A stretch of DNA of 26,071 nt from a virus (Duplodnaviria > Heunggongvirae > Uroviricota > Caudoviricetes), in IMG/VR virus record IMGVR_UViG_2909309443_000007. One strand, 5' to 3'. Below, piece after piece: positions 1 to 20,779 of this stretch. How positions within the stretch are numbered: the stretch's first letter is position 1; every line of letters begins with the position of its first letter. The position numbers were made by a program, and so were the translations under genes. Under the pieces are notes generated by a model. That model saw only the letters and a program-made list of their open reading frames with translations, was not told where the DNA came from and did not search any database.

Positions 1-267
1 TTACTCTGCAGGTGAAGTCGGCCACTCAATATCAGGTGCGGTTGATGTATCAACACGGTTCAGCAACACCCGATACTTCTTCCAGGCTTCCAGCAACGAG
101 TTTTCTTCCTCCGTTGCGATCTCCAGATCTACAGCATCCTGAAGTGGCGCAATATGCTCACTGAATTCCTGGATGTAGAACTGTGTGGTGACGGTCTTCC
201 AGCCATTCGGCTCCTGCTGTATCGAAGCATACCAGGCTATTTCAATATCGCTATGCTGCGGCAGCAT
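1..267 (-). CDS. Tail fibre assembly protein C-terminal-domain ORF (88 aa)
   Basis: C-terminal half (…[47 protein letters not shown]) matches the recalled lambda Tfa C-terminus. The N-terminus is unrelated. AAGGGG Shine-Dalgarno before the ATG and an in-frame stop just upstream. Confidence 0.6.
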
Positions 268-323
268 TTAACCCCTTGTAATTCATCGCCATAATTGATT
301 TAATTCATAAACAAAACTATAAC

Positions 324-992
324 ATGGTGAAATTAATGAAAAAAAACACACATGATGGGGCTAAAATTTACACACCACTTACCCTAAAGCTTTATGACTG
401 GTGGGTTTTGGGAGTATCAAATCGTCTTGCATGGGGATGTCCTACAAAGGAACACCTTCTTCCACACTTTCTGGAACATTTAGGTAACAACCATCTGGAT
501 ATTGGTGTTGGAACTGGGTTTTACCTTACTCACGTACCTGAGAGTAGTCTGATATCTTTAATGGATTTGAACGAAGCTAGCCTGAACGCGGCATCTACAA
601 GGGCTGGGGAATCAAAAATTAAACATAAAATTAGCCATGATGTTTTTGAACCTTATCCCGCGGCGTTACATGGTCAATTTGATTCCATTTCCATGTTTTA
701 CCTTCTTCACTGCCTGCCTGGAAATATATCTACAAAAAGCTGTGTAATACGCAATGCTGCGCAGGCCTTAACTGACGATGGAACTCTATACGGAGCCACA
801 ATTCTTGGCGATGGAGTTGTGCACAATAGCTTCGGTCAAAAACTGATGCGCATTTACAATCAGAAAGGCATCTTTTCAAACACAAAAGATTCCGAAGAAG
901 GCTTAACACATATACTCTCAGAGCATTTCGAGAATGTTAAAACCAAGGTTCAAGGTACTGTAGTAATGTTTTCCGCTTCAGGGAAAAAATAG
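324..992 (+). CDS. Class I SAM-dependent methyltransferase, substrate unknown (cargo gene)
   Basis: 222-aa ORF with a motif-I-like LDIGVGTG and overall class I methyltransferase character. AT-rich relative to the flanks. True start may be the ATG at 336. Confidence 0.6.
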   Translation: MVKLMKKNTHDGAKIYTPLTLKLYDWWVLGVSNRLAWGCPTKEHLLPHFLEHLGNNHLDIGVGTGFYLTHVPESSLISLMDLNEASLNAASTRAGESKIKHKISHDVFEPYPAALHGQFDSISMFYLLHCLPGNISTKSCVIRNAAQALTDDGTLYGATILGDGVVHNSFGQKLMRIYNQKGIFSNTKDSEEGLTHILSEHFENVKTKVQGTVVMFSASGKK

Positions 993-999
993 CATCCAA

Positions 1000-1032
1000 C
1001 CGCAGCACGTTCTTGCTTAAGACGTGCTGCGG
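1000..1032. terminator. Perfect 11-bp-stem hairpin downstream of the methyltransferase gene (possible terminator, no clear U-tract)
   Basis: CCGCAGCACGT-tcttgcttaag-ACGTGCTGCGG read directly from the sequence. Confidence 0.4.
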
Positions 1033-1069
1033 CATAATCCCAATGATTACTCCCTGACAGGGTTCGTAG

Positions 1070-1141
1070 GCCACTCAATATCAGGTGCAGTTGATGTATC
1101 AACACGGTTCAGCAACACCCGATACTTTTTCCAGGCTTCCA
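1070..1141. repeat. Direct repeat of the tfa 3' end (copy of 20..91, 2-3 mismatches)
   Basis: About 72 bp near-identical to the 3' end of the tfa-like ORF at 1..267. It abuts the truncated pin gene. Confidence 0.75.
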
Positions 1142-1178
1142 CCACCAGCACGACAAGATGCCGCATACAGTGACCCAG

Positions 1179-1373
1179 TCAGTCCAGTTTCCAGACAACT
1201 AGTGCGTCACCTTTTTGAAGGCGCTTTAAAGCACGTTTTAATCCAGGTCGGCCTGTCCTTGTTCCGCTTAATTTATCTTCAAATATTTGTTCACATCCTG
1301 CACAAACAAGAGCGTTTCGTTGCAGGTCTGTATTCTGGTCATTTGTTGATACCCTTACATAGCCAATCAGCAC
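1179..1373 (-). pseudogene. pin: Serine DNA invertase (Pin/Gin/Hin family) N-terminal remnant, 64 codons
   Basis: VLIGYVRVSTNDQNTDLQRNALVCAGCEQIFEDKLSGTRTGRPGLKRALKRLQKGDALVVWKLD matches recalled Pin N-terminus, then TGA. Sequence after the stop is the duplicated tfa 3' end. GTG start with GGGAGA Shine-Dalgarno. Confidence 0.75.
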
Positions 1374-1427
1374 GCTGAATCTCCCGTCCAAAAGCACAAA
1401 TCATGCCATGCAGGCCAGAAACGGCCA

Positions 1428-1453
1428 TTATCTAAAACCTCGGTTTACAGGAA
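1428..1453. promoter_or_regulatory. Invertase crossover site (gix/hix-like), site 1
   Basis: Reverse complement TTCCTGTAAACCGAGGTTTTAGATAA matches the recalled gix consensus at 25 of 26 positions. Lies between the pin remnant and the silent tail-fibre segment. Confidence 0.7.
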
Positions 1454-2437
1454 ACGGTAAGTCAGGCTTCTGGCGCATTACAGAAAAACCAGAACGGCGC
1501 AGATATTCCAGGAAAAGATACCTTCACCAAAAATATTGGTGCCTGCCGCGCATATAGCTCATGGCTGAATATTGGTGGCGATAGTCAGGTCTGGACAACC
1601 GCGCAATTTATTTCGTGGCTGGAGAGTCAGGGGGCATTTAACCATCCTTACTGGATGTGCAAAGGCTCATGGGCTTATGCAAATAATAAGGTCATTACAG
1701 ATACAGGTTGCGGAAATATTTGTCTTGCAGGTGCTGTGGTGGAAGTTATTGGCACTCGCGGCGCAATGACCATACGCGTTACTACGCCGAGCACGTCCAG
1801 CGGTGGCGGAATTACTAACGCTCAATTCACTTATATTAATCATGGTGATGCTTACGCTCCTGGCTGGCGACGAGACTACAACACGAAAAACCAGCAGCCT
1901 GCATTTGCTTTAGGGCAAACAGGACGCAGGGTCGCAAATGATAAAGCTGTTGGCTGGAACTGGAATAGCGGTGTTTATGATGCAGATATCAGTGGTGCAT
2001 CGACATTAATCCTCCACTTCAATATGAATGCGGGGAGTTGCCCTGCTGTACAGTTCCGCGTGAATTACAGGAACGGCGGTATTTTTTATCGTTCAGCGCG
2101 TGATGGTTATGGCTTTGAAGCTAACTGGTCAGAGTTTTACACCACAACACGCAAACCCTCTGCGGGGGATGTTGGTGCATATACGCAGGCAGAATGTAAC
2201 TCAAGGTTTATTACAGGTATTCGCCTTGGCGGTCTGTCATCTGTTCAGACATGGAAAGGCCCCGGCTGGTCTGACAGGTCAGGTTATGTCGTTACGGGTT
2301 CAGTTAACGGAAACCGTGATGAATTAATTGATACAACTCAGGCAAGGCCAATTCAGTATTGCATTAATGGGACGTGGTATAACGCGGGAGTATTTAACGA
2401 TGATGCACTTAAAAAACATTACTGCTGGCAACCCTAA
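1436..2437 (+). CDS. Silent alternative tail-fibre C-terminal segment (Sv'-like), no start codon of its own
   Basis: Reading frame opens inside site 1 and runs without stops to 2437. Would be fused in frame to the Stf constant part only after inversion. Confidence 0.6.
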   Translation, partial: NLGLQETVSQASGALQKNQNGADIPGKDTFTKNIGACRAYSSWLNIGGDSQVWTTAQFISWLESQGAFNHPYWMCKGSWAYANNKVITDTGCGNICLAGAVVEVIGTRGAMTIRVTTPSTSSGGGITNAQFTYINHGDAYAPGWRRDYNTKNQQPAFALGQTGRRVANDKAVGWNWNSGVYDADISGASTLILHFNMNAGSCPAVQFRVNYRNGGIFYRSARDGYGFEANWSEFYTTTRKPSAGDVGAYTQAECNSRFITGIRLGGLSSVQTWKGPGWSDRSGYVVTGSVNGNRDELIDTTQARPIQYCINGTWYNAGVFNDDALKKHYCWQP

Positions 2438-2933
2438 AACAAAAGAGCAATACCAGCTAACAAAGCAATTTAACATCAAATGGCTTTATTCAGATGATGG
2501 AAAAAACTGGTATGAGGAACAAAAGAATTTCCAGCCAGACACTTTGAAAATGGTCTATGACCATAACGGCGTTATTATTTGTATTGAAAAGGATGTTTCA
2601 GCAATTAATCCAGAGGGTGCAAGCGTCGTTGAATTACCTGATATTACAGCAAATCGCCGGGCTGATATTTCGGGGAAATGGATGTTCAAAGATGGCGTAG
2701 TGATAAAGCGAACTTATACCGAGGAAGAGCAGAGGCAACAAGCGGAAAATGAAAAGCAAAGCCTGTTGCAACTTGTCAGGGATAAAACCCAGCTATGGGA
2801 CTCACAGCTACGGCTGGGCATCATTTCCGACGAGAATAAACAAAAATTAACCGAGTGGATGCTCTATGCGCAGAAAGTCGAATCTACAGACACTTCCGGC
2901 CTGCCAGTAACGTTTCCCGAACAACCAGAATGA
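2400..2933 (+). CDS. tfa: Alternative tail fibre assembly protein (tfa')
   Basis: N-terminus [22 protein letters not shown] is homologous to the minus-strand tfa at 2962..3489; C-terminus diverges. GGAG Shine-Dalgarno upstream. Confidence 0.7.
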   Translation: MMHLKNITAGNPKTKEQYQLTKQFNIKWLYSDDGKNWYEEQKNFQPDTLKMVYDHNGVIICIEKDVSAINPEGASVVELPDITANRRADISGKWMFKDGVVIKRTYTEEEQRQQAENEKQSLLQLVRDKTQLWDSQLRLGIISDENKQKLTEWMLYAQKVESTDTSGLPVTFPEQPE

Positions 2934-2936
2934 GAG

Positions 2937-2964
2937 AAGGCCCGCTATCGGGCCTTAATTTTTA
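2937..2964. terminator. Hairpin between convergent tfa genes, acting as a terminator for the plus-strand tfa'
   Basis: AAGGCCCG-ctat-CGGGCCTT followed by a T-run on the plus strand. Confidence 0.5.
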
Positions 2965-3489
2965 CTCTGGTTTTTGTGGCCATTCAGGATTTGCCGTATC
3001 CACACGGCTGACCAGAACACTGTAGCGTTCCCATGCTTCCAGTCGTGTGCGTTCCTCGTCTGTTGCCATATTCAGCCTGACAGCGCGTTCCAGCGGTTGG
3101 ATGACTGATTCAGCTTCGGAAAGCAATGCGGCCTTTTGTGATTCGGCCTGTTGTTGTTGCTCGTCTGCCGTATAAATCCGTTTAACCACAGCTCCGTCCC
3201 TAAACATCCACTTACCGGAATCATCAGCGCGGCGGTTGGCTGTAATATCTGGAACCTCAACGACGCTATAACCTTCAGGGTTAAGCGTGGAGGCATCTTT
3301 GGTGATGGCGACAATAATATTATTTGCATCGTAAACAATCTTTATTGTGTCTGGCTGAAAGTTTTTCACTTCCTCATACCAGTTTTTACCGTCTTCTGTA
3401 TATAACCAGATAACATCAAAATTCTTTGTTAGCTGATATTGTTCTTTTGTTTTTGGATTTCCAGACTTAATATTTTTTAAATGCTGCAT
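2962..3489 (-). CDS. tfa: Tail fibre assembly protein
   Basis: 175 aa, Mu U/lambda Tfa-like. Immediately downstream of stf on the same strand. Confidence 0.8.
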
Positions 3490-3492
3490 AAA

Positions 3493-6400
3493 TTACACCT
3501 GTACGACGTTATACCATGTGCCATTGATGTATTTTTGTATTGGCCTGAAGATGGCTTCATCATCGCCATCTACTTCACCAATGATTCTTAATCCGGTAAT
3601 TGCGTGTCCGGCTTTTTCATAACGACCACCACGCGCCATCAATTGAACAACACGCGTACCCAGGCGAACATCTTTCACATAGCGGGAATCAAAATTCCCC
3701 CAGTTGCTGGGCTGTATCTGACCGTTAACAGCAAATGTTACTGAGTTATCTGTATTTCGCTGACTATAGAAATGCCAGCCTGAATCATCACCAAGCTCTG
3801 CAACAGTTGGTCTTGATGAAGTGCCCCATAAATTAAACCCTACGTTCTTCGTGGAGTTGTTGGAGCTGGATAGCGAGAATTTTTTACTATCACCTGCCTG
3901 AATGTTTTTAAAAGCAATAGCCACTCCATTCTGAAAGCGGAATACTCGCTGACTATTAGCGTAAACATCAAGAATACCATCACCATTCTGTTTAAATCCG
4001 GTATCATTATCACCAAGAACAATTGAGTTCCCACCCAACGCGTTATTCGTGCCAAGTGCCAGCCCGCCATCAATCCTGGCACCATTACCAACAGACACAA
4101 CTCCTGTTCTTAAGTTGATGTTGAATGGCCTTAATGGCCCAATATCTCCATTTTCACCCTCATTTTCTCGTGTAGGGATGATATGCAGGTGTTCTTCAGA
4201 ACGGCGAAAAATAGCACCAAAGGATGAATTAAAAATCCTCAGTGCATTGACTGTCGATATTTTTACTTCACTGCCGAAAAGGGCTTTAACAAGAACATAC
4301 AAAGCACCCCATTTAAGATTCATCAGGTCTTTTGTTGTGGTGCCATGGCGGCTTCTCCATTTGAAATATTCATTGCCGTTGTCGCCTGTTTCAAACCACA
4401 TGTATGAATCAGTATCGCTGTCGGCATCATTTTTAAATCCAATCTTCGCCCAGTCAGTATTTCTAATCCAGGCAAGGATTGAGTCGTTTGCAAAAGTAAG
4501 CCCACCGGACAAGGTATCGCCATTCTTTTGCACGGCGTTCCTGGCCCTGTTTACCGTTTCCTGTAAACCGAGGTATTCGATAACAGCGGCAACGGTCGAT
4601 TTCGCAAGAATATCCCGCCCGACTTTTGTCAGGGTTGCCAGGCTGGCGACATCATTCCCCGTAAAATACGGAAACCTGTCTGCCGCAGTAGCAAGCCCGG
4701 CCAGCGCCGTCAGGGTGGCATCTTTCGGTTGCTTACCCGCAAGCGCGTTAGTCATGGTGGTCGCAAAATTCGGGTCGTTTCCCAGCGCCGCCGCCAGCTC
4801 GTTCAGCGTATTCAGTGCGTCAGGCGACGAGTCTACAAGTGCGGCAATCGCGGCCATCACATAAGCCGTGCTTGCGATCTGAGTATTATTAGTCCCTTTT
4901 GGCGCAGTTGGCGTTGTTGGCGTTCCGGTCAGCGCAGGACTGTTTAAAGGCGCTTTCTTGTTCGTTTCATCCATTACCGCCTTAACCGCTTTTGGTGTCG
5001 CAGCCAGCGTTTCAGACGGGCTGTTAGTGGCGCTACTGAGCTGAACTATCCCTTTTCGTGCCGTCGTTGCATCCTGAGCGGTATATTTTGCGTTAGCAAG
5101 GTCATATGCTGCCTTTACTGCCTTTGGTGTTGCCGCCAGTGACTCGGAAGTGCTGTTGGTCGCACTGCTGAGCTGAACCACACCTTTTTTCGTCGTGCTC
5201 GCATCTTCCAGAGATACGGCATCAGCAATATCCTCTGCCCGTTTTGCTGCTGTTTCGGCACGCGTTGCCGCGGATTCAGCAGCAACTTTGCTCTGAGATG
5301 CAGCCGTCGCACTGCCTGCCGCCTCTGATGCTTTCGTTGTTGCTGTCGTGGCACTACCTTTCGCTGCTGACGCTTGTCTGGTCGCCTCATCTTTTGAAGC
5401 AGACGCAGATGATGCCGATGACGCCGCTGAACCAGCGGACGATGCGGCTGCCGCCTTAGAGGAAGCAGCATTGTCTGCTGAAGTCTTTGCATTTGTTTCA
5501 GAGGTTTTTGCTGCAGAAGCAGACCTCGCTGCTGCAGTGGCTTGCTTAGTGGCTTCGCCAGCCTTCGTTGTGGCTGTTGAAGCGGATGATGCGGCGCTTT
5601 CTGCCGATTTTCCGGCGGCGGTGGCACTGGCTGAGGCCTGCCCGGCACTTGTTGACGCGGCACTGGCCGACGATGCAGCCGCTGTTTTTGAACCTGCCGC
5701 AGCTGAGGCACTCTGTGCTGCTGCCGTTTCAGAAGACTTAGCGTTTGTCTCAGACGTCTTTGCCGCCTTCGCGGAATTTCCTGCCGCCGTTGCCGAGGAA
5801 GCTGCACTACTGGCACTTGATGATGCATTCGTTTCTGATGATTTCGCTGCCTCTTTTGAGGCCGCCGCCCCCCGTGCCGAGGTGGCAGCTTCTGACGCCT
5901 TCGTGGTCGCTGTGGATGCAGAAGTGGCTGCCGATTTTTGTGATGCTGCGGCATTCGTTTCTGACGTTTTCGCGGCACTGGCGCTGGTAGCTGCCGCGCT
6001 TTTTGATGACTCTGCAGCAGCAGCACTTTTCGCTGCTTCACTGGCCTTTGTCGATGCCGTTCCTGCGCTGGAAGACGCTGACTGAGCCGACGACGCGGCC
6101 TGTCCGGCTGACGTGCTGGCTGCGCGTGCTGAGCCTGCAGCATCAGTCGCATGGGTTGCCGCCTCACGGGCTGATGTGCTGGCATCACTGGCTGACTTCT
6201 TCGCGGCTGCCGTGTTCTGTGCCACTGCGGACGCGTTACGCGCCACCTCTTCCACCATCAGTTCAAAACGGCGCAGTGCCTCCGGACGGGCATCATCCTC
6301 CGTCATGGCACCGAGAAAATCATTCAGCGTACCGGGTCGGGAATCTTCATACACGGTGATGGTCCCGGCATGTGACGGCGGGAATCCGTCCACCAACAGA

Positions 6401-6582
6401 ATAACGCTGTACTGACCGTACTCAACGTCCATGCTGTAACGCCCGGCTTCATCCGGATTTTCTGAGGCCAGCGTGTTCACCACCACCGTGGTGCTGTTAC
6501 GTTTTGCTTTCAGCTGGATTGTGCAGTTCTGTACTGGTTTTCCTGTGCCGTCTTTCAGTACACCTGAAATCTTTACTGCCAT
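3493..6582 (-). CDS. stf: Side tail fibre protein (lambda Stf-like) with a long Ala/Ser/Thr-rich shaft
   Basis: N-terminus MAVKISGVLKDGTGKPVQNCTIQLKA… matches recalled lambda Stf. Contains the LNTLNELAAALGNDP and GIVQLSSATNS motifs. Distal part lies inside the invertible segment. Confidence 0.85.
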   Translation of the reverse strand: MAVKISGVLKDGTGKPVQNCTIQLKAKRNSTTVVVNTLASENPDEAGRYSMDVEYGQYSVILLVDGFPPSHAGTITVYEDSRPGTLNDFLGAMTEDDARPEALRRFELMVEEVARNASAVAQNTAAAKKSASDASTSAREAATHATDAAGSARAASTSAGQAASSAQSASSSAGTASTKASEAAKSAAAAESSKSAAATSASAAKTSETNAAASQKSAATSASTATTKASEAATSARGAAASKEAAKSSETNASSSASSAASSATAAGNSAKAAKTSETNAKSSETAAAQSASAAAGSKTAAASSASAASTSAGQASASATAAGKSAESAASSASTATTKAGEATKQATAAARSASAAKTSETNAKTSADNAASSKAAAASSAGSAASSASSASASKDEATRQASAAKGSATTATTKASEAAGSATAASQSKVAAESAATRAETAAKRAEDIADAVSLEDASTTKKGVVQLSSATNSTSESLAATPKAVKAAYDLANAKYTAQDATTARKGIVQLSSATNSPSETLAATPKAVKAVMDETNKKAPLNSPALTGTPTTPTAPKGTNNTQIASTAYVMAAIAALVDSSPDALNTLNELAAALGNDPNFATTMTNALAGKQPKDATLTALAGLATAADRFPYFTGNDVASLATLTKVGRDILAKSTVAAVIEYLGLQETVNRARNAVQKNGDTLSGGLTFANDSILAWIRNTDWAKIGFKNDADSDTDSYMWFETGDNGNEYFKWRSRHGTTTKDLMNLKWGALYVLVKALFGSEVKISTVNALRIFNSSFGAIFRRSEEHLHIIPTRENEGENGDIGPLRPFNINLRTGVVSVGNGARIDGGLALGTNNALGGNSIVLGDNDTGFKQNGDGILDVYANSQRVFRFQNGVAIAFKNIQAGDSKKFSLSSSNNSTKNVGFNLWGTSSRPTVAELGDDSGWHFYSQRNTDNSVTFAVNGQIQPSNWGNFDSRYVKDVRLGTRVVQLMARGGRYEKAGHAITGLRIIGEVDGDDEAIFRPIQKYINGTWYNVVQV
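4558..4583. promoter_or_regulatory. Invertase crossover site (gix/hix-like), site 2, inside stf, inverted relative to site 1
   Basis: TTCCTGTAAACCGAGGTATTCGATAA on the plus strand. Encodes the YLGLQETV motif of Stf; site 1 encodes NLGLQETV in the silent segment. Confidence 0.7.
4975..5195. repeat. Imperfect tandem duplication (about 85-bp units) inside stf
   Basis: Two similar DNA blocks encoding the duplicated peptide KG(V/I)VQLSSATNS.SE(S/T)LAATPKAVKA. Confidence 0.6.
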
Positions 6583-6593
6583 ATTCACCCCAC

Positions 6594-6619
6594 AAAAAAG
6601 CCCGCCTGAACCGGCGGGC
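6594..6619 (-). terminator. Rho-independent terminator downstream of lom
   Basis: Minus strand: GCCCGCC-ggttca-GGCGGGC followed by TTTTTT. Confidence 0.55.
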
Positions 6620-6646
6620 TGTCATAACACTGTGTTACCTGGCTAA

Positions 6647-7245
6647 TCAGAATTTATAACCGACACCCACGATGAACCCGTCAGTGCGCCAGTCACCACT
6701 GCCGGAGCCTTCATAAGCAAGGTCAATGGCCACGGATTCGGTCGGGTTAAACTGCACGCCAGCCCCCACGCCAGAGACGTGTTGCTGTGGCGACCGTCAT
6801 CACTTCCGGTCAGCACATCGTGCGTTTTCCCCTTGTTGTCAGTTACGCGAAGATAATCCCCGGAGAAAGTCGACACACGGCTGTAAGCCACACCCGCCAT
6901 CGCATACGCGCTGAACCATTCATTCACGCGCACAGACGGCCCCGCCATCACGCTGAACCAGCGGTTACGCACGGAATCTTCATGCCAGCGGGTATCGCTG
7001 TAATGCGTTTTTTGCTCATCTTTGGCATTGGCATAACTGAATGACGTCACCAGCCCCAGCGTGTCCGTAAATTCATAACGGTATTTCACGTTAATGCCCT
7101 TCAGGTCATCACTGCCTGGCATATCAGTATGGGTCTGAAGATACCCGGCGCTTAGTGTGGACTGATGCTCTGCTGCGCTCGCTGGCGTACCAGCGGCAAC
7201 CAGCCAGACTACTGCGGACAGAATAACAGCACATAATTTACGCAT
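6647..7245 (-). pseudogene. lom: Lom/Ail-family outer membrane protein, frameshifted near the C-terminus
   Basis: Signal peptide and Lom-like body. The canonical C-terminus …DWRTDGFIVGVGYKF is in another frame after a C5/G5 run at about 6763-6767. Confidence 0.7.
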
Positions 7246-7269
7246 AATTACCTCTCGCTTTTCTGCAAT

Positions 7270-7293
7270 AAAAAAGGCACCATTTCTGGTGCC
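7270..7293 (-). terminator. Rho-independent terminator downstream of the J fragment
   Basis: Minus strand: GGCACCA-gaaa-TGGTGCC followed by TTTTTT. Confidence 0.55.
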
Positions 7294-7312
7294 CGTATCT
7301 GGGTTATAAAAT

Positions 7313-9163
7313 TCAGCTAATCGTGATGCCTGTAGTGGCTTTCTTCATCACCACAACCAGCAAATCGCTGATACTTGCTGTGGGATACCAGTTATTTACC
7401 AGCCATGCTGACACCGAAAACTCCAGTGTCATGTGACCGTGACCGGCAGGCATATCAATAACGCCACTGTAAATCAGCGTATTATCCAGCGCGGTACGGT
7501 TATAAATTTCAGCACCGTTTTTCCGCACTATCAGACGGCATGAGGAGTAAATATCAGTATGCTCTCTCTCATGCTTAGCGCCACTGAATGCCACCGCCGG
7601 AATAACAATCTGCCGGTCAAACGGCTGATCGTCATAAACCCTGACGGTAATGGTTCCTGATGGCCACCGCTCCGGTGCACGGGAGTCCCGGGGGAAAGCT
7701 TTGCCCACTGTTTTAACGAGATCGCCTTCAATCTGGTTGGCGGACAGTTTTCCCAGAACCCGACAGTTCTCGTTAATCGTGACGTTGTTGAGCGTCCCGG
7801 AGTTCGCATTCACGTTACCGCTGATATCGGCATTTTTCGCCGTCAGCCGCCCGTCCGGTGTCAGGGAAAATGCCGGAGGATTACCGCCGCTGGTAATGGT
7901 GGGAGCCGTCAGGCGTTTCAGGAACACTTCGTTCATGAATATCTGATCGCCCTGACCAACAAACATCGGCTTTGTGTTGCCATTCGCAGGATTAATCATC
8001 GCAATCCTGTCTGCCGCCAGCAGCACCTGACTCTGCATGCCGTCAGGGGTGTTCTCAATACCGGCACCAATACCCGCGATATAAAGGCGTCCGTCCTGCA
8101 TCTGCTGCAGCTTCACAGCCCACATGCTGTTCAGGTTATTATTTGTATCAACCTGAACCTTCTGTATCTGCTGAATTGCCGCACTCTGGTCTTCCAGTTT
8201 CTTATTGACGGTCTGTGTGATTTCATTGCTGACATCCGTAATGGATGTCCTGATTTCAGCCAGGTCAGGCGCAAGCTGACCGTTATCAATCTGCGTCCAC
8301 AGCTCCTGAGCCAGATGGGTTTTCCCTATCTCGCCTTTGAAAAAATCCAGATAGCCGGATGCGTCATCACTCGGCTGACCAACAGCCTCCACGAATGCCG
8401 ATTTGCCAACGGTGTTCACACTGCGAACGTAAAAATAATAATCATGGCCCGGTTTGATATTGATACTGGCGGCTATCCAGTACAGCGCCGTGCCAAGATA
8501 GCGGGCTGTGGTTTCAACCTGCCTGATATCCGCAATCCGCTTTTCCGAGAACCAGAACTCAAACTGTACCGTCGGATCATAAACGGCAAGATGCGGCGTG
8601 GCGGTTATCTGAAAATAGCCCGGCGTCAGCTCAATCCGCGACGGCGCTGCCGGTGCGGCAATCCGGAACGATACCGACGCCGGATCGCCCTGCTGTCCCC
8701 ATGCATTTACTGCCCGGACTGTCAGCCTGTAGTTCCCCAGAGCCAGTTGTGTGAAGCGGTAAGTGGTTTCCGTCGTCCGGGCCGTGCTGACCAGCCGCTC
8801 ACTGCCGTCATCCGCTGCCACGGTCAGGCGAAGCATAAAGCTCACCCCCTTCACCACCTTCGGCGTGTCCCAGCGGGCCAGCACCTGGTATTCCCCGCTG
8901 TCTGCGGTGACTTCGGCGGTCAGATGCTGCACTGCTGGCGGCGTGACACCATTCACCGTGCCGCTCTGGTTACCGTCAAAGTGCGCCCCGTTATCCACGA
9001 TGGCTTCTTTCTCCGGTACATGCTGCACTGCAGTGATGGCATACGTACCGTCGTCGTTCTCACGGATACTCACACAGCGGAACAGGCGCTGGCGCAGCGT
9101 CGGCAGCTTCAGCCCCCACACGCTGTACTCGGCAACGCCGTCAGGAACCCGACTCACTTTCAC
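7313..9163 (-). pseudogene. J: Host specificity protein J, C-terminal fragment of roughly 615 codons (5' half deleted)
   Basis: C-terminus …[49 protein letters not shown]… matches recalled lambda J. Upstream frame joins an L remnant out of frame. Confidence 0.8.
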
Positions 9164-9164
9164 C

Positions 9165-9239
9165 TTCCCAGAGCACCACGCTGGCCGACTGCTCCGCACG
9201 GGTGCATTCATTCAGTGTTTCCTGCCGGATATCCTGCAT
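9165..9239 (-). pseudogene. L: Tail protein L, N-terminal 25-codon remnant
   Basis: ATG overlapping the M stop (ATGA) encodes [25 protein letters not shown] as recalled for lambda L, then jumps into J. Confidence 0.6.
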
Positions 9240-9568
9240 CAGTTCACCACCTGTTCAAACTCTGCGCTGAACTCAACACGCAGCATACTGACCCGCGACG
9301 ACCATTTTGCGCAGGTCACCTTTATCTGCCGCCACTCATAAGGCGGCGTCCACAGAAAGGCTTTCCAGCCCCCGTGCTCAGCCAGAAACGACTCCAGCGC
9401 CGTGGCCTCCTCACGGGAGACAGACAGCGTCACGCTGTACGTTTTCAGGTCAGCGTTCAGCCCGGCAGGCGCTCGCTGAGAATAGCCATCACCAAAGCGC
9501 ACCTTTCTTACGGAAGGGGCCGAAGCCACATCCATACCGGGTTTCGCTTTCCAGCGGAAGGTCTTCAT
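9239..9568 (-). CDS. M: Tail tip assembly protein M
   Basis: 109 aa, near-identical to recalled lambda gpM (MKTFRWK…EFEQVVN). Confidence 0.85.
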   Translation of the reverse strand: MKTFRWKAKPGMDVASAPSVRKVRFGDGYSQRAPAGLNADLKTYSVTLSVSREEATALESFLAEHGGWKAFLWTPPYEWRQIKVTCAKWSSRVSMLRVEFSAEFEQVVN

Positions 9569-12039
9569 CGTCCACCTCCGGAGAACAGACCACCATCGCG
9601 CATCTGTGCCTGAATTTCATCACGGGCCCCCTTACGGGCCATGTCATACACTGCCTTCATCATCTGTGGACCTGGCAGACCATTCGTACCGTCGTTCTGA
9701 ATCACCACGTGATTGTTCTGATTAAAATTAATGCCTTCCGCCCGCCGCATCTGCGCCGGACTTCCGGCACCGCCCACATAACCACCTTCCGCATAGCCGC
9801 GCATCAGCCGGTAGAGATTTCCCACGCCAATCCGGCTGGTTGCCTCCTTCGTGAAGACAAATTCACCACGGTGAACAATCCCCGCTGGCTCATATTTGCC
9901 GCCAGTTCCCGTAAATCCCCCGGTCGCAAAATGGAATTTTGCCGCAGCAGCCTGAATGGCTGTACCGCCTGACACTGATGCGCCACCACCGGCAGCACCG
10001 CCAATGGCGCTGCCGATACTCCCGACAATTCCCACCATTGCCTGCTTAAGCAGAATTTCTGTCATCATGGACAGCACGGAACGGGTGAAGCTGCGCCAGT
10101 TCTGCTCACTGCCGGTCAGCATCGCCGCCATATTCTGTGCAATACCATCAAAGGTCTGCGTGGCAGCACTTTTAACCTGCGACATACTGTCCGTGGCGCT
10201 CTCTTTCCACTCACTCCAGCCTGACCTGAGGCCTGCCATCCAGCTCCCGCGAAGCTGGTCTTCAGCTGCCCAGGTCTTTTTCTGCTCTGACATGACGTTA
10301 TTCAGCGCCAGAGGATTATCGCCATACTGTTCCTTCAGGCGCTGTTCCGTGGCTTCCCTCGCTGCCTGCCGGTCAGTCAGCCCCCGGTTTTTCGCATCAA
10401 TGGCGGCCCGTTTTGCCCGTTGCTGCTGTGCGAATTTATCCGCCTGCTGTGCCAGCGCGTTCAGGTGTTCCTGATAGGTGACCTTGTCGCCAAGTGCAGC
10501 CAGCTGGCGTTTGTACTCCAGCGTCTCATCTTTATGCGCCAGCAGGGATTTCTCCTGTGCAGACAGCTGGCGACGTTGCGCCGCCTCCTCCAGTACCGCG
10601 AACTGACTCTCCGCCTTCCACAAATCCCGGCGCTGCTGGCTGATTTTTTCATTCGCTCCACTATGCTGCTCAAGCATTTTTAGTTCAGCTTGTAACGCAA
10701 GAAGAGCTGCATGTGCTCGATCTTCCTGACGCTCTCCCGCAGCGGACTGCTTCGGCTTTTTCAGCGTCGCTTCATAGTCCTTTTTCGCCGCCGCCATCAG
10801 CGTGTTGTAATCTGCCTGCAGGATTTTCCCGTCTTTCAGTGCCTTGTTCAGTTCTTCCTGACGAGCGGTATATTTCTCCAGCGGCGTCTGCAGGCGTTCG
10901 TAAGCCTTCTGCGCCTCTTCGGTATATTTCAGCCGTGATGCCTCAGACTCGGCCCAGTCCTTTGCTGCCATCTCTCTGGCCTTTTCAAGATCGGCCTGCA
11001 ACGTGGCGGCTGAAAGCCCAAGTTGCGCATTCGCTCTGTCCTCCCATGCTCCCCGGAGATTGGCAAGAAATGCTGAGGTTTTACCGCGCCGGTGGCTCCG
11101 GCTCTGATACCACTGCCATTTTTTGTCCGCCTCATCAAAAGCCTTTTCTGCTTTCTCCAGCATTCCCTGGGCAGTGTCCGGGCGACCAATATCCAGCACC
11201 GCATCCCACATGGATTTGAATGCCCGTGCTGTCCTGTCTGCCCAGGTCTCCAGCGTGCCCATGTTCTCTTTCAGGCGGAGGGTCTGGTCATCAAACCCTT
11301 TCGTTGCGGCCTCGTTCGCCGCCTGCAATGCCCCGGCTTCATCTCCGGAACGCTGCAACTGAGCAACATACGCAATCTGCTCCGCCGTCACGTTATGGAA
11401 CTGACGTGCCATCGCTGTCAGTCCCGACGTCGGGTCTGTGGTCAGCTTCCCGAAGGCTTCAGCGACCTTGTCCACCTCCACGCCGGATGCAGAGGAGAAA
11501 CGCGCCACACTCTGGCTGATCGCCTCAAACTGCTCACCACCACGCACACCGGCATTCACCAGCGCCGTCAGTGACTCGCTGGTCTGGTTAAACGTCAGCC
11601 CTGCCGCCTGCCCGGCTCTGGACAGGACCAGCATACGATCTGCCGTCAGTCCCGCCTGATTGCCGGAAAGGACCAGCGTTTTGTTGAAATCGGACAGGGT
11701 TGAGTTGCCCTGATACCAGGCATACGCCAGCGCACCGGTCGCCACCGCCAGCGAGGTGGCCCCCACCATCGGCAGGGTGATCGCACCGGCAAGCCCCCTG
11801 AACATGGGGATCATCCCGCCGAAGGAGTCCTTCACCTGACCACCCTGTTGCAGCAGGATCAGCCACGGACTTTGCCCGCCTGCAAGCTGCGTGGCCACGT
11901 CAGTGAACTGTGCAGGCAGCATACGCATGGCGGCTTTATACTGTCCGACGGAAATGGCCATTGCGGCGGCACCGGGCACCGCCGTTCTGCTGATACGGCT
12001 GAGGTTTTCAACGGCCTGCTCAAGACCTTTTATGGCCAT
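9565..12039 (-). CDS. H: Tail tape measure protein H with its N-terminus replaced by the first 29 codons of Z (in-frame Z'-'H fusion)
   Basis: MAIKGLEQAVENLSRISRTAVPGAAAMAI matches recalled gpZ N-terminus; from SVGQYKAAMRMLPAQFTD… it matches recalled gpH to the C-terminus. 824 aa, shorter than lambda H. Confidence 0.75.
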   Translation of the reverse strand: MAIKGLEQAVENLSRISRTAVPGAAAMAISVGQYKAAMRMLPAQFTDVATQLAGGQSPWLILLQQGGQVKDSFGGMIPMFRGLAGAITLPMVGATSLAVATGALAYAWYQGNSTLSDFNKTLVLSGNQAGLTADRMLVLSRAGQAAGLTFNQTSESLTALVNAGVRGGEQFEAISQSVARFSSASGVEVDKVAEAFGKLTTDPTSGLTAMARQFHNVTAEQIAYVAQLQRSGDEAGALQAANEAATKGFDDQTLRLKENMGTLETWADRTARAFKSMWDAVLDIGRPDTAQGMLEKAEKAFDEADKKWQWYQSRSHRRGKTSAFLANLRGAWEDRANAQLGLSAATLQADLEKAREMAAKDWAESEASRLKYTEEAQKAYERLQTPLEKYTARQEELNKALKDGKILQADYNTLMAAAKKDYEATLKKPKQSAAGERQEDRAHAALLALQAELKMLEQHSGANEKISQQRRDLWKAESQFAVLEEAAQRRQLSAQEKSLLAHKDETLEYKRQLAALGDKVTYQEHLNALAQQADKFAQQQRAKRAAIDAKNRGLTDRQAAREATEQRLKEQYGDNPLALNNVMSEQKKTWAAEDQLRGSWMAGLRSGWSEWKESATDSMSQVKSAATQTFDGIAQNMAAMLTGSEQNWRSFTRSVLSMMTEILLKQAMVGIVGSIGSAIGGAAGGGASVSGGTAIQAAAAKFHFATGGFTGTGGKYEPAGIVHRGEFVFTKEATSRIGVGNLYRLMRGYAEGGYVGGAGSPAQMRRAEGINFNQNNHVVIQNDGTNGLPGPQMMKAVYDMARKGARDEIQAQMRDGGLFSGGGR

Positions 12040-12306: not shown

Positions 12307-12336
<30 letters not shown>
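12051..12336 (-). pseudogene. Head-tail joining protein FII, C-terminal fragment
   Basis: MGTSATMTSGEQSGAVIRGVFDDPENISYAGQGVRVEG…PPAVNRRR matches recalled lambda FII from about codon 23. Joined directly to the truncated portal frame. Confidence 0.7.
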
Positions 12337-14177
<1,841 letters not shown>

Positions 14178-14723: not shown

Positions 14724-15773
14724 TCAAACGATTAAATCCTGAACTTCCCTGACTGTCTGTTCAAAACGTCCTGTCTCCAGCTCAACACCAATCGCACAAC
14801 GCCCCAGTGCCATCGCCGCTTTTACCGTTGAACCTGAACCCATAAAAAAATCTGCAACCAGGTCTCCCGGACGACTGCTCGCGTTGATTATCTGCTGCAG
14901 CATTTCTGCCGGTTTTTCGCACGGATGTTTTCCTGGATAGTACTGCACCGGTTTATGCGTCCAGACATCGGTGTACGGAACCTGCGCCGTCACACCGAAA
15001 TACCGCCGCAAATTTTTATATTCACTCAGCAGTTCCGTGTACTGCCGGTTCAGCTCACTGTATGTGCTGACCAGCTGGTGGTGTGGCTTTTCCAGTTCCC
15101 CGCGCTGATGTTTTTCTGCCGCAACACGCGCAAACAACGCCTGCAATTTGTTGTAATCACCCTCGTTCGGTAACTGCCACTGACTGGTACCAAACCAGTG
15201 CGAAGCCATGTTTTTCTTTCCGGTGGCTTCCGCTATCTGTTTTGACGTTATTCCCAGTGATTTACGCGCATCACGAAAGTAAGAAATCAGCGGGGCCATG
15301 ACGTGCTGTTTTAGCTCGCGCCCCTGTGCCACATAGCCATCATCTTTCGGGCGATACGGTCCCTGATAATGTTCTGCAAACAGAATGCGCTCTGTTGCCG
15401 GAAAATACGCCCGCAGACTTTCCTTATTGCACCCGTTCCAGCGTCCGGACGGCTTCGCCCAGATAATGTGGTTCAGCACATTAAAGCGCTCACGCATCAT
15501 GATTTCGGTGTCAGATGCCAGGCGATGACCACAGAACAGGTAAAGACTTCCGGTAGGCTTCAGTACCCGCCAGAACTGCGCCAGACACTGGTCCAGCCAT
15601 TTCAGGTAATCATCGTCGCCCTCCCACTGGTTATCCCAGCCCTCGGGCTTCACTTTAAAGTATGGCGGGTCTGTGACTATCAGATCGACAGAATTTTCCG
15701 GTAAGGTCTGGATAAACTCCAGGCAATCAGCGTTGATTAACTCACAACTGGATATTTTTACAGTATTAATCAT
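14724..15773 (-). CDS. DNA amino-methyltransferase (N6-adenine or N4-cytosine), orphan
   Basis: DPPY motif (…LIVTDPPYF) near the N-terminus and an FxGSGST AdoMet-binding motif near the C-terminus. No restriction endonuclease partner nearby. Confidence 0.8.
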   Translation of the reverse strand: MINTVKISSCELINADCLEFIQTLPENSVDLIVTDPPYFKVKPEGWDNQWEGDDDYLKWLDQCLAQFWRVLKPTGSLYLFCGHRLASDTEIMMRERFNVLNHIIWAKPSGRWNGCNKESLRAYFPATERILFAEHYQGPYRPKDDGYVAQGRELKQHVMAPLISYFRDARKSLGITSKQIAEATGKKNMASHWFGTSQWQLPNEGDYNKLQALFARVAAEKHQRGELEKPHHQLVSTYSELNRQYTELLSEYKNLRRYFGVTAQVPYTDVWTHKPVQYYPGKHPCEKPAEMLQQIINASSRPGDLVADFFMGSGSTVKAAMALGRCAIGVELETGRFEQTVREVQDLIV

Positions 15774-19369: not shown

Positions 19370-20284
19370 ATGGCTAGCAAGCGCTTTTTCTTCGATTTTT
19401 ATCAATGTCACACTATAAGCACTGATACAAATGCAGGAGTTAATTCACCTGAAGCTGTTTTTTCAAAAATTTTTGAGTCATACAGCGAAGGCCGAGACAA
19501 AACTGTACGTAAAATAGGAAATAAACTAGTTGAAATGCGCTTCATGGAAAGAACCGACTATGGTTTCAGGGGAGTTATAGGAAAACACAGAACCAATAAT
19601 CTCCCTCATGTTGCTGTAGCCGGAGGTGAAGAAAGAGAAATTAAACTTGAAATCAATGAAAACTTATTAGAAAAAGCTTATTTTCATTTTTATACCCAAG
19701 ACTCAGTTTTAATAATTCAACGAAACAGACTCTGTTATGGCTGGTTGCTATTAAGTAAATATCTTTCCAACAGTTCACAAAATACAACTGTTAATCCCAT
19801 CATTCAGACCAGTAGTTTAAAGTGGTTGATGCGTAATGAAGTTCGAATCAAAACTCTAGAAATCGGTATCGCTCGGCCAAAGAATGTGCAACTATATGAG
19901 GATGTTGAACATAACTTCAACAATGCATTGATAGCCACTCTAAATGGTACTAATTCTGCCAAAGTAAATCTTACATTACGTGGGGATAGTCGTTCTGAAG
20001 ATCCTGAATCTCGCTATCTAGGTTCTCAACTAAAAAGAGCCTTTAAAGAAACACTAGAGACTTTTGAGGTTGAAAAACTTAAACTAGAAACCCAAGACAT
20101 TGAGACCGGTGTACAGCATCCTATCGATCTTGTAGCAGACAAATTAGTCTACTACACAGATGTTGAACTTGGAGGTAGGTATCCATTAGTTGGCAGCATT
20201 TGGAGCGCCTTAACTCTTGCAAAAGATAGTAAAGATGATGAATTGAAGGCATACTTTGGAGTAGCCAATCAAAGAGTTGATTAA
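19370..20284 (+). CDS. Hypothetical soluble protein (304 aa), candidate sensor component of a two-gene module
   Basis: Long ORF in an AT-rich island. No recognisable catalytic motif (no P-loop). Charged, probably helical C-terminal region. Confidence 0.55.
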   Translation: MASKRFFFDFYQCHTISTDTNAGVNSPEAVFSKIFESYSEGRDKTVRKIGNKLVEMRFMERTDYGFRGVIGKHRTNNLPHVAVAGGEEREIKLEINENLLEKAYFHFYTQDSVLIIQRNRLCYGWLLLSKYLSNSSQNTTVNPIIQTSSLKWLMRNEVRIKTLEIGIARPKNVQLYEDVEHNFNNALIATLNGTNSAKVNLTLRGDSRSEDPESRYLGSQLKRAFKETLETFEVEKLKLETQDIETGVQHPIDLVADKLVYYTDVELGGRYPLVGSIWSALTLAKDSKDDELKAYFGVANQRVD

Positions 20285-20299
20285 TTTTGGAGCGATGGT

Positions 20300-20779
20300 A
20301 TGAAAAAGGGGAAATTGATAACTTTGTACAGTTATGGTTATAATTTAGCCTCTGTTGTTTTTTGTATCATCGCATGGCCTCTTTCTGCAAAGCTAAATTT
20401 TGCACAAATTCAGCCAATCGCTTCGGCCGTTTCTACATTTTCTGGGATATTATTTGGCTTTGTTTTAGGTTCGCTTACCTTGATTGCTTCAGCTAGAGAT
20501 AATACGCTAATTAGAAATATAGGAAAAACTGGTTATTTGAAAAAACTGACCGAAGAAATGCACTCCACTATGGGATGGTTACTATCAGTTTGTATTATTT
20601 TTATCATTTTATTATTTTTCCCTGATACACTAAAGTTTAAATTCCCACTAGTAAAAGATGCCGACGAGCACACATATGCCCAACTATTACTCCAAGTGGG
20701 AATTTTTTTCCTGCTTATTACATTTAAAAAATTTTATACTACCTGGTCGCGTCTAAAGGACATAACAAGGCTCATGTGA
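20300..20779 (+). CDS. Hypothetical membrane protein (159 aa) with four predicted transmembrane helices, candidate effector
   Basis: Four hydrophobic stretches of about 18-24 residues. Starts 15 bp after the upstream stop with GGAG in the gap. Confidence 0.6.
   Translation: MKKGKLITLYSYGYNLASVVFCIIAWPLSAKLNFAQIQPIASAVSTFSGILFGFVLGSLTLIASARDNTLIRNIGKTGYLKKLTEEMHSTMGWLLSVCIIFIILLFFPDTLKFKFPLVKDADEHTYAQLLLQVGIFFLLITFKKFYTTWSRLKDITRLM

Follow-up and report, generated by a model that had tools for sequence, protein, structure and literature searches.

The YbcY methyltransferase module of a lambda-like Escherichia coli prophage and a probably later invertible tail-fibre cassette with a dead invertase gene

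The window, a 26,071-nucleotide (nt) stretch of Caudoviricetes DNA (IMG/VR record IMGVR_UViG_2909309443_000007), begins with ybcY, a gene for a predicted class I S-adenosylmethionine (SAM)-dependent methyltransferase that lies between two partial copies of the tail-fibre assembly gene tfa and close to a truncated invertase gene (pin'). Window positions 1–1141 are the YbcY module, which is conserved among lambda-like prophages of E. coli, is already known as tfaD-ybcY-tfaX in the DLP12 prophage of strain K-12 and is routinely annotated by the Prokaryotic Genome Annotation Pipeline (PGAP). The whole arrangement very likely combines this module with a separate, later replacement of the adjoining genes by an invertible tail-fibre cassette. 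In the proposed course of events, a small-molecule or lipid methyltransferase would have been captured by lambdoid phages as cargo. The resulting module would occupy the tail-fibre/attR end of the prophage and, in the late-gene direction, would run from the tfa 3' end through a strong hairpin and the convergent ybcY gene with its sigma-70-type promoter spacer to a tfa fragment, tfaX. A phage already carrying tfa-ybcY-tfaX would then have received a Mu-G/P88-type cassette (S-U-U'-S'-invertase), which would have replaced the C-terminal part of the lambdoid side-tail-fibre gene stf and all of tfa but its last 29 codons. One crossover would have occurred within a stretch of stf that is homologous in the two phage types (about 4982–5205), and the other would be an illegitimate joint that links tfa to pin codon ∼77. 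Read directly from the data are the anatomy and breakpoints, the distribution of the module and joint, and the two orientations of the cassette.

The ybcY region (268–1065) is found in 3934 of 5426 complete E. coli genomes (about 72%), usually at 95–99% identity, and the matches include K-12 derivatives at the DLP12 prophage. In the K-12 annotation, tfaD (b0561) is followed by ybcY (b0562, a pseudogene) and tfaX (b0563) and then by appY and ompT. The order and orientation of tfaD, ybcY and tfaX are those of the window, with 97% DNA identity over 21–1144, a stretch that takes in the hairpin, the promoter spacer and the tfa-derived sequence on either side. K-12 differs from the window in two respects. 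K-12 ybcY is dead through a 2-nt deletion that takes out the ATG codon at window position 336, whereas the window ybcY is intact, and the right-hand tfa copy (tfaD) continues upstream in K-12, whereas that of the window consists of 29 codons fused to pin'. The intact allele, as found in the window, is suited to study, unlike the K-12 pseudogene.

The lambdoid phages PhiR26_1, PhiR29/30, 2G7b, ev243, PhiR68_2, Kati and Turner, whose records derive from induced or isolated phages, carry the module at 97–99% identity to the window between the side-tail-fibre genes and the ompT/att end. DNA identity with K-12 DLP12, 2G7b and PhiR26_1 is 97–98% from window position ∼21/43 to 1144, and the window, K-12 and 2G7b scarcely differ from ∼44 to 1141 when aligned together. 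The synteny of ybcY is that of K-12 DLP12 and 2G7b, with the gene convergent with tfa on one side and divergent from the tfaX fragment on the other. In PhiR26_1, the genes J, lom, stf and a full-length tfa are followed by the convergent ybcY, a 101-amino-acid (aa) tfa fragment, a 494-aa hypothetical protein and ompT. 2G7b carries a different fibre/chaperone pair, and only about 101–105 nt of the tfa 3' end are retained by ybcY. In PhiR68_2, stf, tfa, an intact PinQ/R-type recombinase gene and ynaE precede ybcY, tfaX, appY and ompT, and homology to the window ends at position 1032, within the hairpin, which is a recombination breakpoint in other phages. None of these phage records contains the pin'::tfa joint of the window, and ybcY adjoins a tfa that continues in at least 1784 genomes. 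Judged by these alignments, ybcY and tfaX stay together as a stable unit, and the variation is on the tail-fibre side. The methyltransferase gene with its flanking repeats is a standard and very common prophage module and does not testify to a special insertion event, and YbcY is among the most widespread E. coli prophage cargo proteins, with no function found reported.

The direct repeat that flanks ybcY is 79 nt long, and its two copies are 95% identical in a repeat search and identical at 75 of 79 positions in a direct count. It is the top repeat family of the first 4 kb, far above chance expectation. When one indel is allowed, the similarity runs on through the stop codons, and 1044–1144 matches the first 95 bases with 89% identity. 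In phages with a full tfa, the tfaX/tfa repeat extends to 158 nt with 93.7% identity (window 17–174 versus 4386–4543 of the PhiR26_1 locus L012), and 79 nt of this similarity are retained in the window. The repeat is not an insertion signature; it is what remains of the 158 nt over which the resident tfa resembles the tfaX fragment. A transposon-type target duplication was rejected as the origin of the repeat, which is 79–158 nt long with copies 5–7% apart. The right-hand copy belongs to the 3' end of a resident lambdoid tfa gene, hereafter the tfa scar, which aligns with the K-12 tfaD 3' end without mismatch up to position 1141. A RefSeq gene call for a 45-aa hypothetical protein, WP_001309429.1 (937–1074, minus strand), extends over the hairpin and the ybcY 3' end and is probably spurious.

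The repeats also allow another view of how the module moves, in which ybcY is a cassette mobile by homologous recombination that uses the tfa 3' ends (up to 158 nt) as handles, loops out as a circle and re-enters phages with a conserved tfa 3' end. The repeat is kept in every carrier examined, tfa C-terminal sequence is common to many unrelated phages and the module resides in prophages at different chromosomal sites, all as such a cassette would predict. However, no pair of empty and filled sites was identified, ybcY stays linked to tfaX and to ompT or appY, and variation is always on the tail-fibre side, where several different non-homologous breakpoints (1032, 1141 and ∼1166–1171) fit fibre-gene replacement better. 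Mobility of this kind is therefore improbable. The locus records repeated replacements of tail-fibre genes, and each replacement left a tfa 3' scar of different length beside an untouched cargo gene.

The replacement recorded in the window is marked by the joint between pin' and tfa. Pin homology reaches about codon 77 of 184 and then passes in frame into the last 29 tfa codons; in translation, the Pin frame begins VLIGYVRVST and continues after the joint as AWKKYRVLL...PVRE*. Comparison of the minus strand of 1040–1400 with K-12 pinE and tfaD places the switch at 1141/1142, where only TGGA(A) is common to both parents, and identifies pin'::tfa as an illegitimate, in-frame joint with 4–5 nt of microhomology. 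Only positions 2–73 of the 145-position Pfam Resolvase profile are matched by pin', so that a complete Din-family invertase with a catalytic domain, a C-terminal helix-turn-helix and an open frame is not encoded. Because of a TGA at codon 65 and the cut at codon ∼77, the Pin protein is dead. A joint-specific query (1085–1265) finds the joint covered in 536 genomes. A larger set of 2447 genomes covers at least 80% of window 1–1400, and this figure is not a count of the joint, since the module (20–1144) alone reaches 80%. The joint occurs at different chromosomal sites, at potB in strain 504838 and at trpA/ompW in AREA_R485, and has therefore spread since its formation.

To the right of the joint, the window contains an imported cassette of the Mu-G/P2-like (P88) type, which holds the invertase 5' part, a silent stf C terminus with tfa', and the expressed tfa with the C-terminal part of stf. 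Identity to P88 is 95.4% over window 1183–3699 and 92.4% over 4136–5205, and the remaining invertase sequence (1183–1373) is 95% identical to the P88 invertase gene. The cassette is also ∼94% identical to the invertible regions of Mu (G region with gin), D108 and P1/P7 (C region). The lambdoid phage PhiR26_1, by comparison, matches the window only at 43–1144 and 4982–7472. From this pattern, the pin'::tfa joint would mark an event later than the arrival of ybcY. The cassette has the layout of the Mu G segment with gin, the P1/P7 C segment with cin, P2-like P88 and the e14 P segment with pin, to which it is 90–95% identical in DNA: a constant S part, two inverted sets of fibre C terminus and assembly gene, inverted sites of 26–28 base pairs (bp) and an adjacent Din-family invertase gene. 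It differs from them in that it is grafted onto a lambdoid stf and in that a stop interrupts its invertase gene at codon 65, with the gene cut off at codon ∼77 by fusion to tfa.

The invertible segment appears in both orientations behind the same dead invertase gene. The two crossover sites form an inverted pair for which 0 matches are expected by chance, and they bracket the alternative fibre sets as in other Din-family invertible segments. A flipped junction was built in silico from window 1200–1441 and the reverse complement of 4170–4569. It is matched at 642 of 642 nt in strains E8, E1316, E1648, E1654 and E1739. Window 1–1400 is 100% identical in E8, E1648, E1654 and E1739 and 99.9% identical in E1316, and in strain 504838 the segment is oriented as in the window. 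Because both orientations lie behind the same dead invertase, the segment still inverts. The flipped-junction matches imply that inversion here, unlike in Mu, P1/P7, P88 and e14, would have to rely on an enzyme encoded elsewhere. Din-family invertases cross-complement one another, and we infer that another Din-family invertase of the cell supplies inversion in trans. The invertible host-range switch would thus keep flipping after the loss of its own invertase. An orientation test on the ST131-type locus L014 was ambiguous owing to fibre alleles of only 70–80% identity, and the synthetic flipped-junction search was used in its place. That locus, the trpA/ompW prophage of AREA_R485 (L014 9415–12430), has the same pin'::tfa junction with 97.7% identity over window 20–1468, and its invertible segment carries fibre and chaperone alleles 70–80% identical to those of the window. 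By this comparison, the variable contents of the AREA_R485 segment were exchanged and the dead invertase gene and ybcY stayed.

The ybcY product is encoded by an intact 222-aa open reading frame (ORF) and exceeds the Pfam cut-off of Methyltransf_12 (37.6 versus 30 bits) as well as those of Methyltransf_23, Methyltransf_25 and Methyltransf_11. The true start is probably the ATG codon at 336, giving 218 residues, and not the one at 324, because the alignment with phrog_2132 begins at residue 5, 218 aa is the length of most homologues and a GGTGA Shine-Dalgarno-like sequence lies 5 nt upstream. The phrog_2132 profile matches end to end (E = 4e-156, YbcY residues 5–222 versus profile positions 1–218 of 218) and, as a PHROGs family of unknown function, gives YbcY no role. 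The protein shares 99% identity with a cluster that has 6589 members and bears the name class I SAM-dependent methyltransferase [E. coli]. Motif I (DIGVGTG) does not vary among the 34 aligned homologues (56–90% identity), nor do several aromatic, His and Cys positions, and an N-terminal Trp-rich helix is invariant across the family. An AlphaFold model (predicted local distance difference test, pLDDT, 91.8) consists of a single 218-aa domain with the seven-stranded α/β (Rossmann-type) fold of class I methyltransferases. YbcY is accordingly named here as a predicted class I SAM-dependent methyltransferase. In Enterobacter, Yersinia and Erwinia, homologues of 56–65% identity stand alone on the chromosome and not in a prophage, and the three share no common gene neighbour. 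A HMMER search of 1.84 billion representatives retrieved 417 related clusters at E < 1e-30, and the members that were looked up bear only generic names ('UbiE', 'class I SAM-dependent methyltransferase').

The resemblances of YbcY point to a small substrate. A sequence search of the PDB returns weak relatives only, the strongest of them juvenile hormone acid methyltransferase (profile E = 6e-6) and UbiG, and the fold neighbours are nearly all small-molecule or lipid methyltransferases. The top Foldseek match is the bacterial phosphatidylethanolamine N-methyltransferase PmtA (8ys9), with a template-modelling (TM) score of 0.62–0.66 and 15–17% identity. This likeness is at the fold level only, as YbcY scores 15.6 bits against the NCBIfam PmtA family NF045882 (cut-off 390). 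The RquA family gives 16.9 bits (cut-off 175), and all NCBIfam families remain far under their cut-offs. UbiG, juvenile hormone acid methyltransferase, PmtA and phosphoethanolamine methyltransferase share the Rossmann-type fold and SAM-binding motifs of YbcY but are only 13–21% identical to it, and YbcY is a member of none of these families. Because YbcY resembles small-molecule methyltransferases in fold and sequence, it would be expected to act on a metabolite or a lipid and not on DNA.

Methylation of a macromolecule (DNA, RNA or protein), for example by an anti-restriction or epigenetic methylase or by a modifier of host proteins, is unlikely in view of these best matches and of several further results. 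No DNA-methylase Pfam family is found in YbcY at E ≤ 0.01, and its translation contains neither a (D/N)PP(Y/F) nor a PC catalytic motif. The model represents a bare 218-aa catalytic domain without a target-recognition region. A PADLOC search of ybcY gave one non-significant match and no defence system. Moreover, the prophage already encodes a typical N6/N4 DNA methylase (14724–15773, minus strand; Pfam N6_N4_Mtase, 6.5e-45), and YbcY is therefore not the DNA methylase of the prophage. The preference for a metabolite or lipid substrate can be taken one step further at low probability: YbcY might be a lysogenic-conversion enzyme with a host phenotype, adding a methyl group to the head group of a membrane lipid or to a small acidic metabolite once silencing by H-NS is relieved.

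Close to ybcY in phage 2G7b, and to its homologues in Enterobacter and Erwinia, are genes annotated or matching as an α/β-hydrolase or carboxylesterase (L002 4124–5518, L005 7584–8414 and L011 4281–5813), and the syntenic 494-aa gene of PhiR26_1 (L012 1614–3098) is annotated as hypothetical only. A hydrolase beside ybcY could reflect a functional pairing, with formation and hydrolysis of a methyl ester, or coincidence. On the low-probability reading of YbcY as a lysogenic-conversion enzyme, the nearby hydrolase and esterase genes give a hint of a methyl-ester or methyl-amine cycle.

The surroundings of ybcY resemble those of phage morons, which in the concept of Hendrix and Juhala are autonomous promoter-gene-terminator units between conserved phage genes. 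Like morons, ybcY has a lower G+C content than its surroundings (40.8% versus 50.2% for the window), its own spacer with promoter-like sites, a hairpin 3' of the gene and an orientation opposite to the late operon, and it is missing from phage lambda itself, which matches only the tfa parts of the window. The spacer between the divergent tfaX and ybcY genes is AT-rich and contains two candidate promoters, and the promoter assignment is based on consensus matches and on K-12 data obtained by genomic systematic evolution of ligands by exponential enrichment (SELEX). In that work, TTGATT-17-TATAAC was listed as a constitutive RpoD promoter of ybcY, a constitutive RpoD promoter was also listed for tfaX, and H-NS was bound at the ybcY/tfaX spacer (PMC3946193). 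Where ybcY and tfa converge, they are separated by a G+C-rich hairpin that is far more stable than shuffled controls on both strands (z-scores of −5.6 and −4.3) and is a possible bidirectional terminator, although it differs from the terminators of morons in lacking a U-tract. Taken together, these sequence features suggest that ybcY is a moron that would be expressed in the lysogen.

The tfaX-like ORF is most likely a decaying remnant of an older tfa gene. Its Caudo_TAP match (3.5e-26) is confined to profile positions 75–131, and only its last ∼60 codons are Tfa-like. In tblastn searches, full-length Tfa proteins match the 88-aa ORF only from residue 27–32 to residue 87. Residues 27–88 match many Tfa proteins, with lambda Tfa ∼80% identical, and the first ∼26 residues match only phages that carry the ybcY module. 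The fragment was probably left by an earlier replacement like the one that left the 29-codon scar. It would be doubtful to regard element 1–267 instead as a functional unit under selection beside ybcY, either as a short tail-fibre chaperone or as an IS009 small RNA. The ORF is complete and matches its own PHROG end to end (phrog_2341, 1–88 of 88), the element exceeds the gathering score of Rfam IS009 (RF02111), the K-12 tfaX promoter cited above is constitutive and the element is kept in all carriers seen. Nevertheless, the ORF varies in length, with 61 aa in K-12, 88 aa in the window and 101 aa in PhiR26_1, and is frameshifted in 2G7b by a 7-nt deletion. It also lacks the N-terminal, fibre-specific half of Tfa. 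The IS009 model matches tfa 3' coding sequence, with another, weaker match that stays below threshold (47.5 bits at 1090–1169, minus strand) on the right-hand repeat and tfa scar. As judged from these matches, the IS009 family amounts to the coding sequence at the tfa 3' end, and membership is uninformative on RNA function. In one transcriptome study, IS009 was excluded together with other RNAs, such as intragenic ones, on which ribosome footprints were expected, and a 2026 preprint lists IS009 among small RNAs previously associated with pathogenicity islands or phage sequences.

Several points weigh against the proposed combination of a YbcY module and a later cassette. The order of events is deduced from distribution and breakpoints and not from a dated phylogeny, and recombination between prophages could in principle also have produced the two orientations of the segment. 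The hairpin has no adjacent U-tract, and a terminator scan finds no canonical terminator there. Literature searches for ybcY/b0562, and for methyltransferase with moron, tail fiber assembly or lambdoid, found no functional study and no expression, activity or phenotype data for YbcY. A K-12 ybcY mutant had no effect in the single assay found in the literature, and the K-12 gene is a pseudogene.

Most of what an earlier note read from this DNA is borne out, namely a plus-strand class I methyltransferase gene (here assigned by profile to Methyltransf_12), flanking repeats of the tfa 3' end that hold on alignment (79 nt rather than roughly 72 bp), the fusion of the right tfa copy to a truncated pin, a moron-like character and a substrate that is not evident from sequence. 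The note had also proposed that a single recombination brought in the methyltransferase gene, duplicated the tfa 3' end and truncated pin, and this is very improbable: although 95%-identical repeats flank the gene and the right copy abuts the pin breakpoint, the gene occurs with both tfa-derived flanks and without pin in K-12 DLP12, PhiR26_1 and 2G7b, the pin joint is found in 536 genomes versus 3934 for the gene and at least 1784 for ybcY beside a continuing tfa, ybcY-tfaX lies close to an intact PinQ/R-type recombinase gene in PhiR68_2, an arrangement that the note itself had named as refuting its proposal, the DNA right of the joint is a foreign Mu/P88-like block, and the tfa copies are ∼6% apart in full-tfa phages versus 2–3% for the module between carriers, unlike a fresh duplication. 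The later arrival was probably the pin-bearing invertible cassette and not the methyltransferase gene.

Table 1. Coordinates of the YbcY module, the pin'::tfa joint and the invertible cassette in the window (MFE, minimum free energy).
Feature	Position	Strand	Details
88-aa ORF (tfaX-like)	1–267	-	Pfam Caudo_TAP, profile positions 75–131
Direct-repeat copy 1, tfaX 3' end	17–95	.	75/79 match to 1066–1144
Rfam IS009 (RF02111) match, candidate small RNA family	41–244	-	129.2 bits versus gathering score 117, full model
AT-rich divergent promoter spacer, tfaX/ybcY	268–335	+	26.5% G+C
Candidate promoter TTAACC-16-CATAAT	268–295		Sigma-70-like, promoter scan
Candidate promoter TTGATT-17-TATAAC	295–323		Matches element listed for K-12 ybcY
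222-aa ORF (ybcY, predicted class I methyltransferase)	324–992	+	Pfam Methyltransf_12
GGTGA Shine-Dalgarno-like sequence	327–331	+	
G+C-rich hairpin between convergent ybcY and tfa	1000–1032	.	MFE −23.9 (+) and −28.5 (−) kcal/mol
tfa scar, last 29 codons and stop of resident lambdoid tfa	1047–1141	-	Ends PVRE*; Caudo_TAP 5e-13, profile positions 104–130
39-aa ORF	1047–1166	-	Pfam: last 27 positions of Caudo_TAP
Direct-repeat copy 2, inside tfa scar	1066–1144	.	75/79 match to 17–95
pin' (dead invertase gene)	1142–1373	-	GTG start, catalytic-Ser motif YVRVST, TGA at codon 65 (1179–1181)
72-aa ORF	1179–1397	-	Pfam: first half of serine-recombinase catalytic domain
Imported Mu-G/P2-like (P88) invertible tail-fibre cassette	1183–5205	.	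92–95% identity to P88
Left crossover site, gix/pix-type	1428–1455	+	Inverted partner at 4556–4583, 2 mismatches
Silent stf C terminus in cassette	1436–2437	+	
tfa' in cassette	2401–2933	+	
Expressed tfa in cassette	2962–3489	-	
Right crossover site, inside stf	4556–4583	-	Partner of 1428–1455

In the rest of the prophage, the window lacks, at the junction 9165–9167, 3.6 kb that are present in strain 504838 (L001 21168–24795). According to the L001 annotation, the lost segment covers tail assembly and C40 peptidase genes, most of L, and the part of the J gene that encodes the N terminus of the tail-tip protein. What is left of J, a 632-aa ORF (7313–9211, minus strand), contains immunoglobulin-like and C-terminal J domains only, and on this gene content the prophage should be unable to make tails. 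A tape-measure gene (9565–12039) lies only 267 nt from a lambda-family portal gene (12307–13752). The head and tail-shaft genes that are normally found between portal and tape measure seem to have been deleted, which would be a second sign of a cryptic prophage. At 19370–20779, two plus-strand ORFs amid minus-strand ORFs encode a 304-aa DUF6731 protein and a 159-aa protein without a Pfam match, and this segment may be another cargo or defence-type insert.

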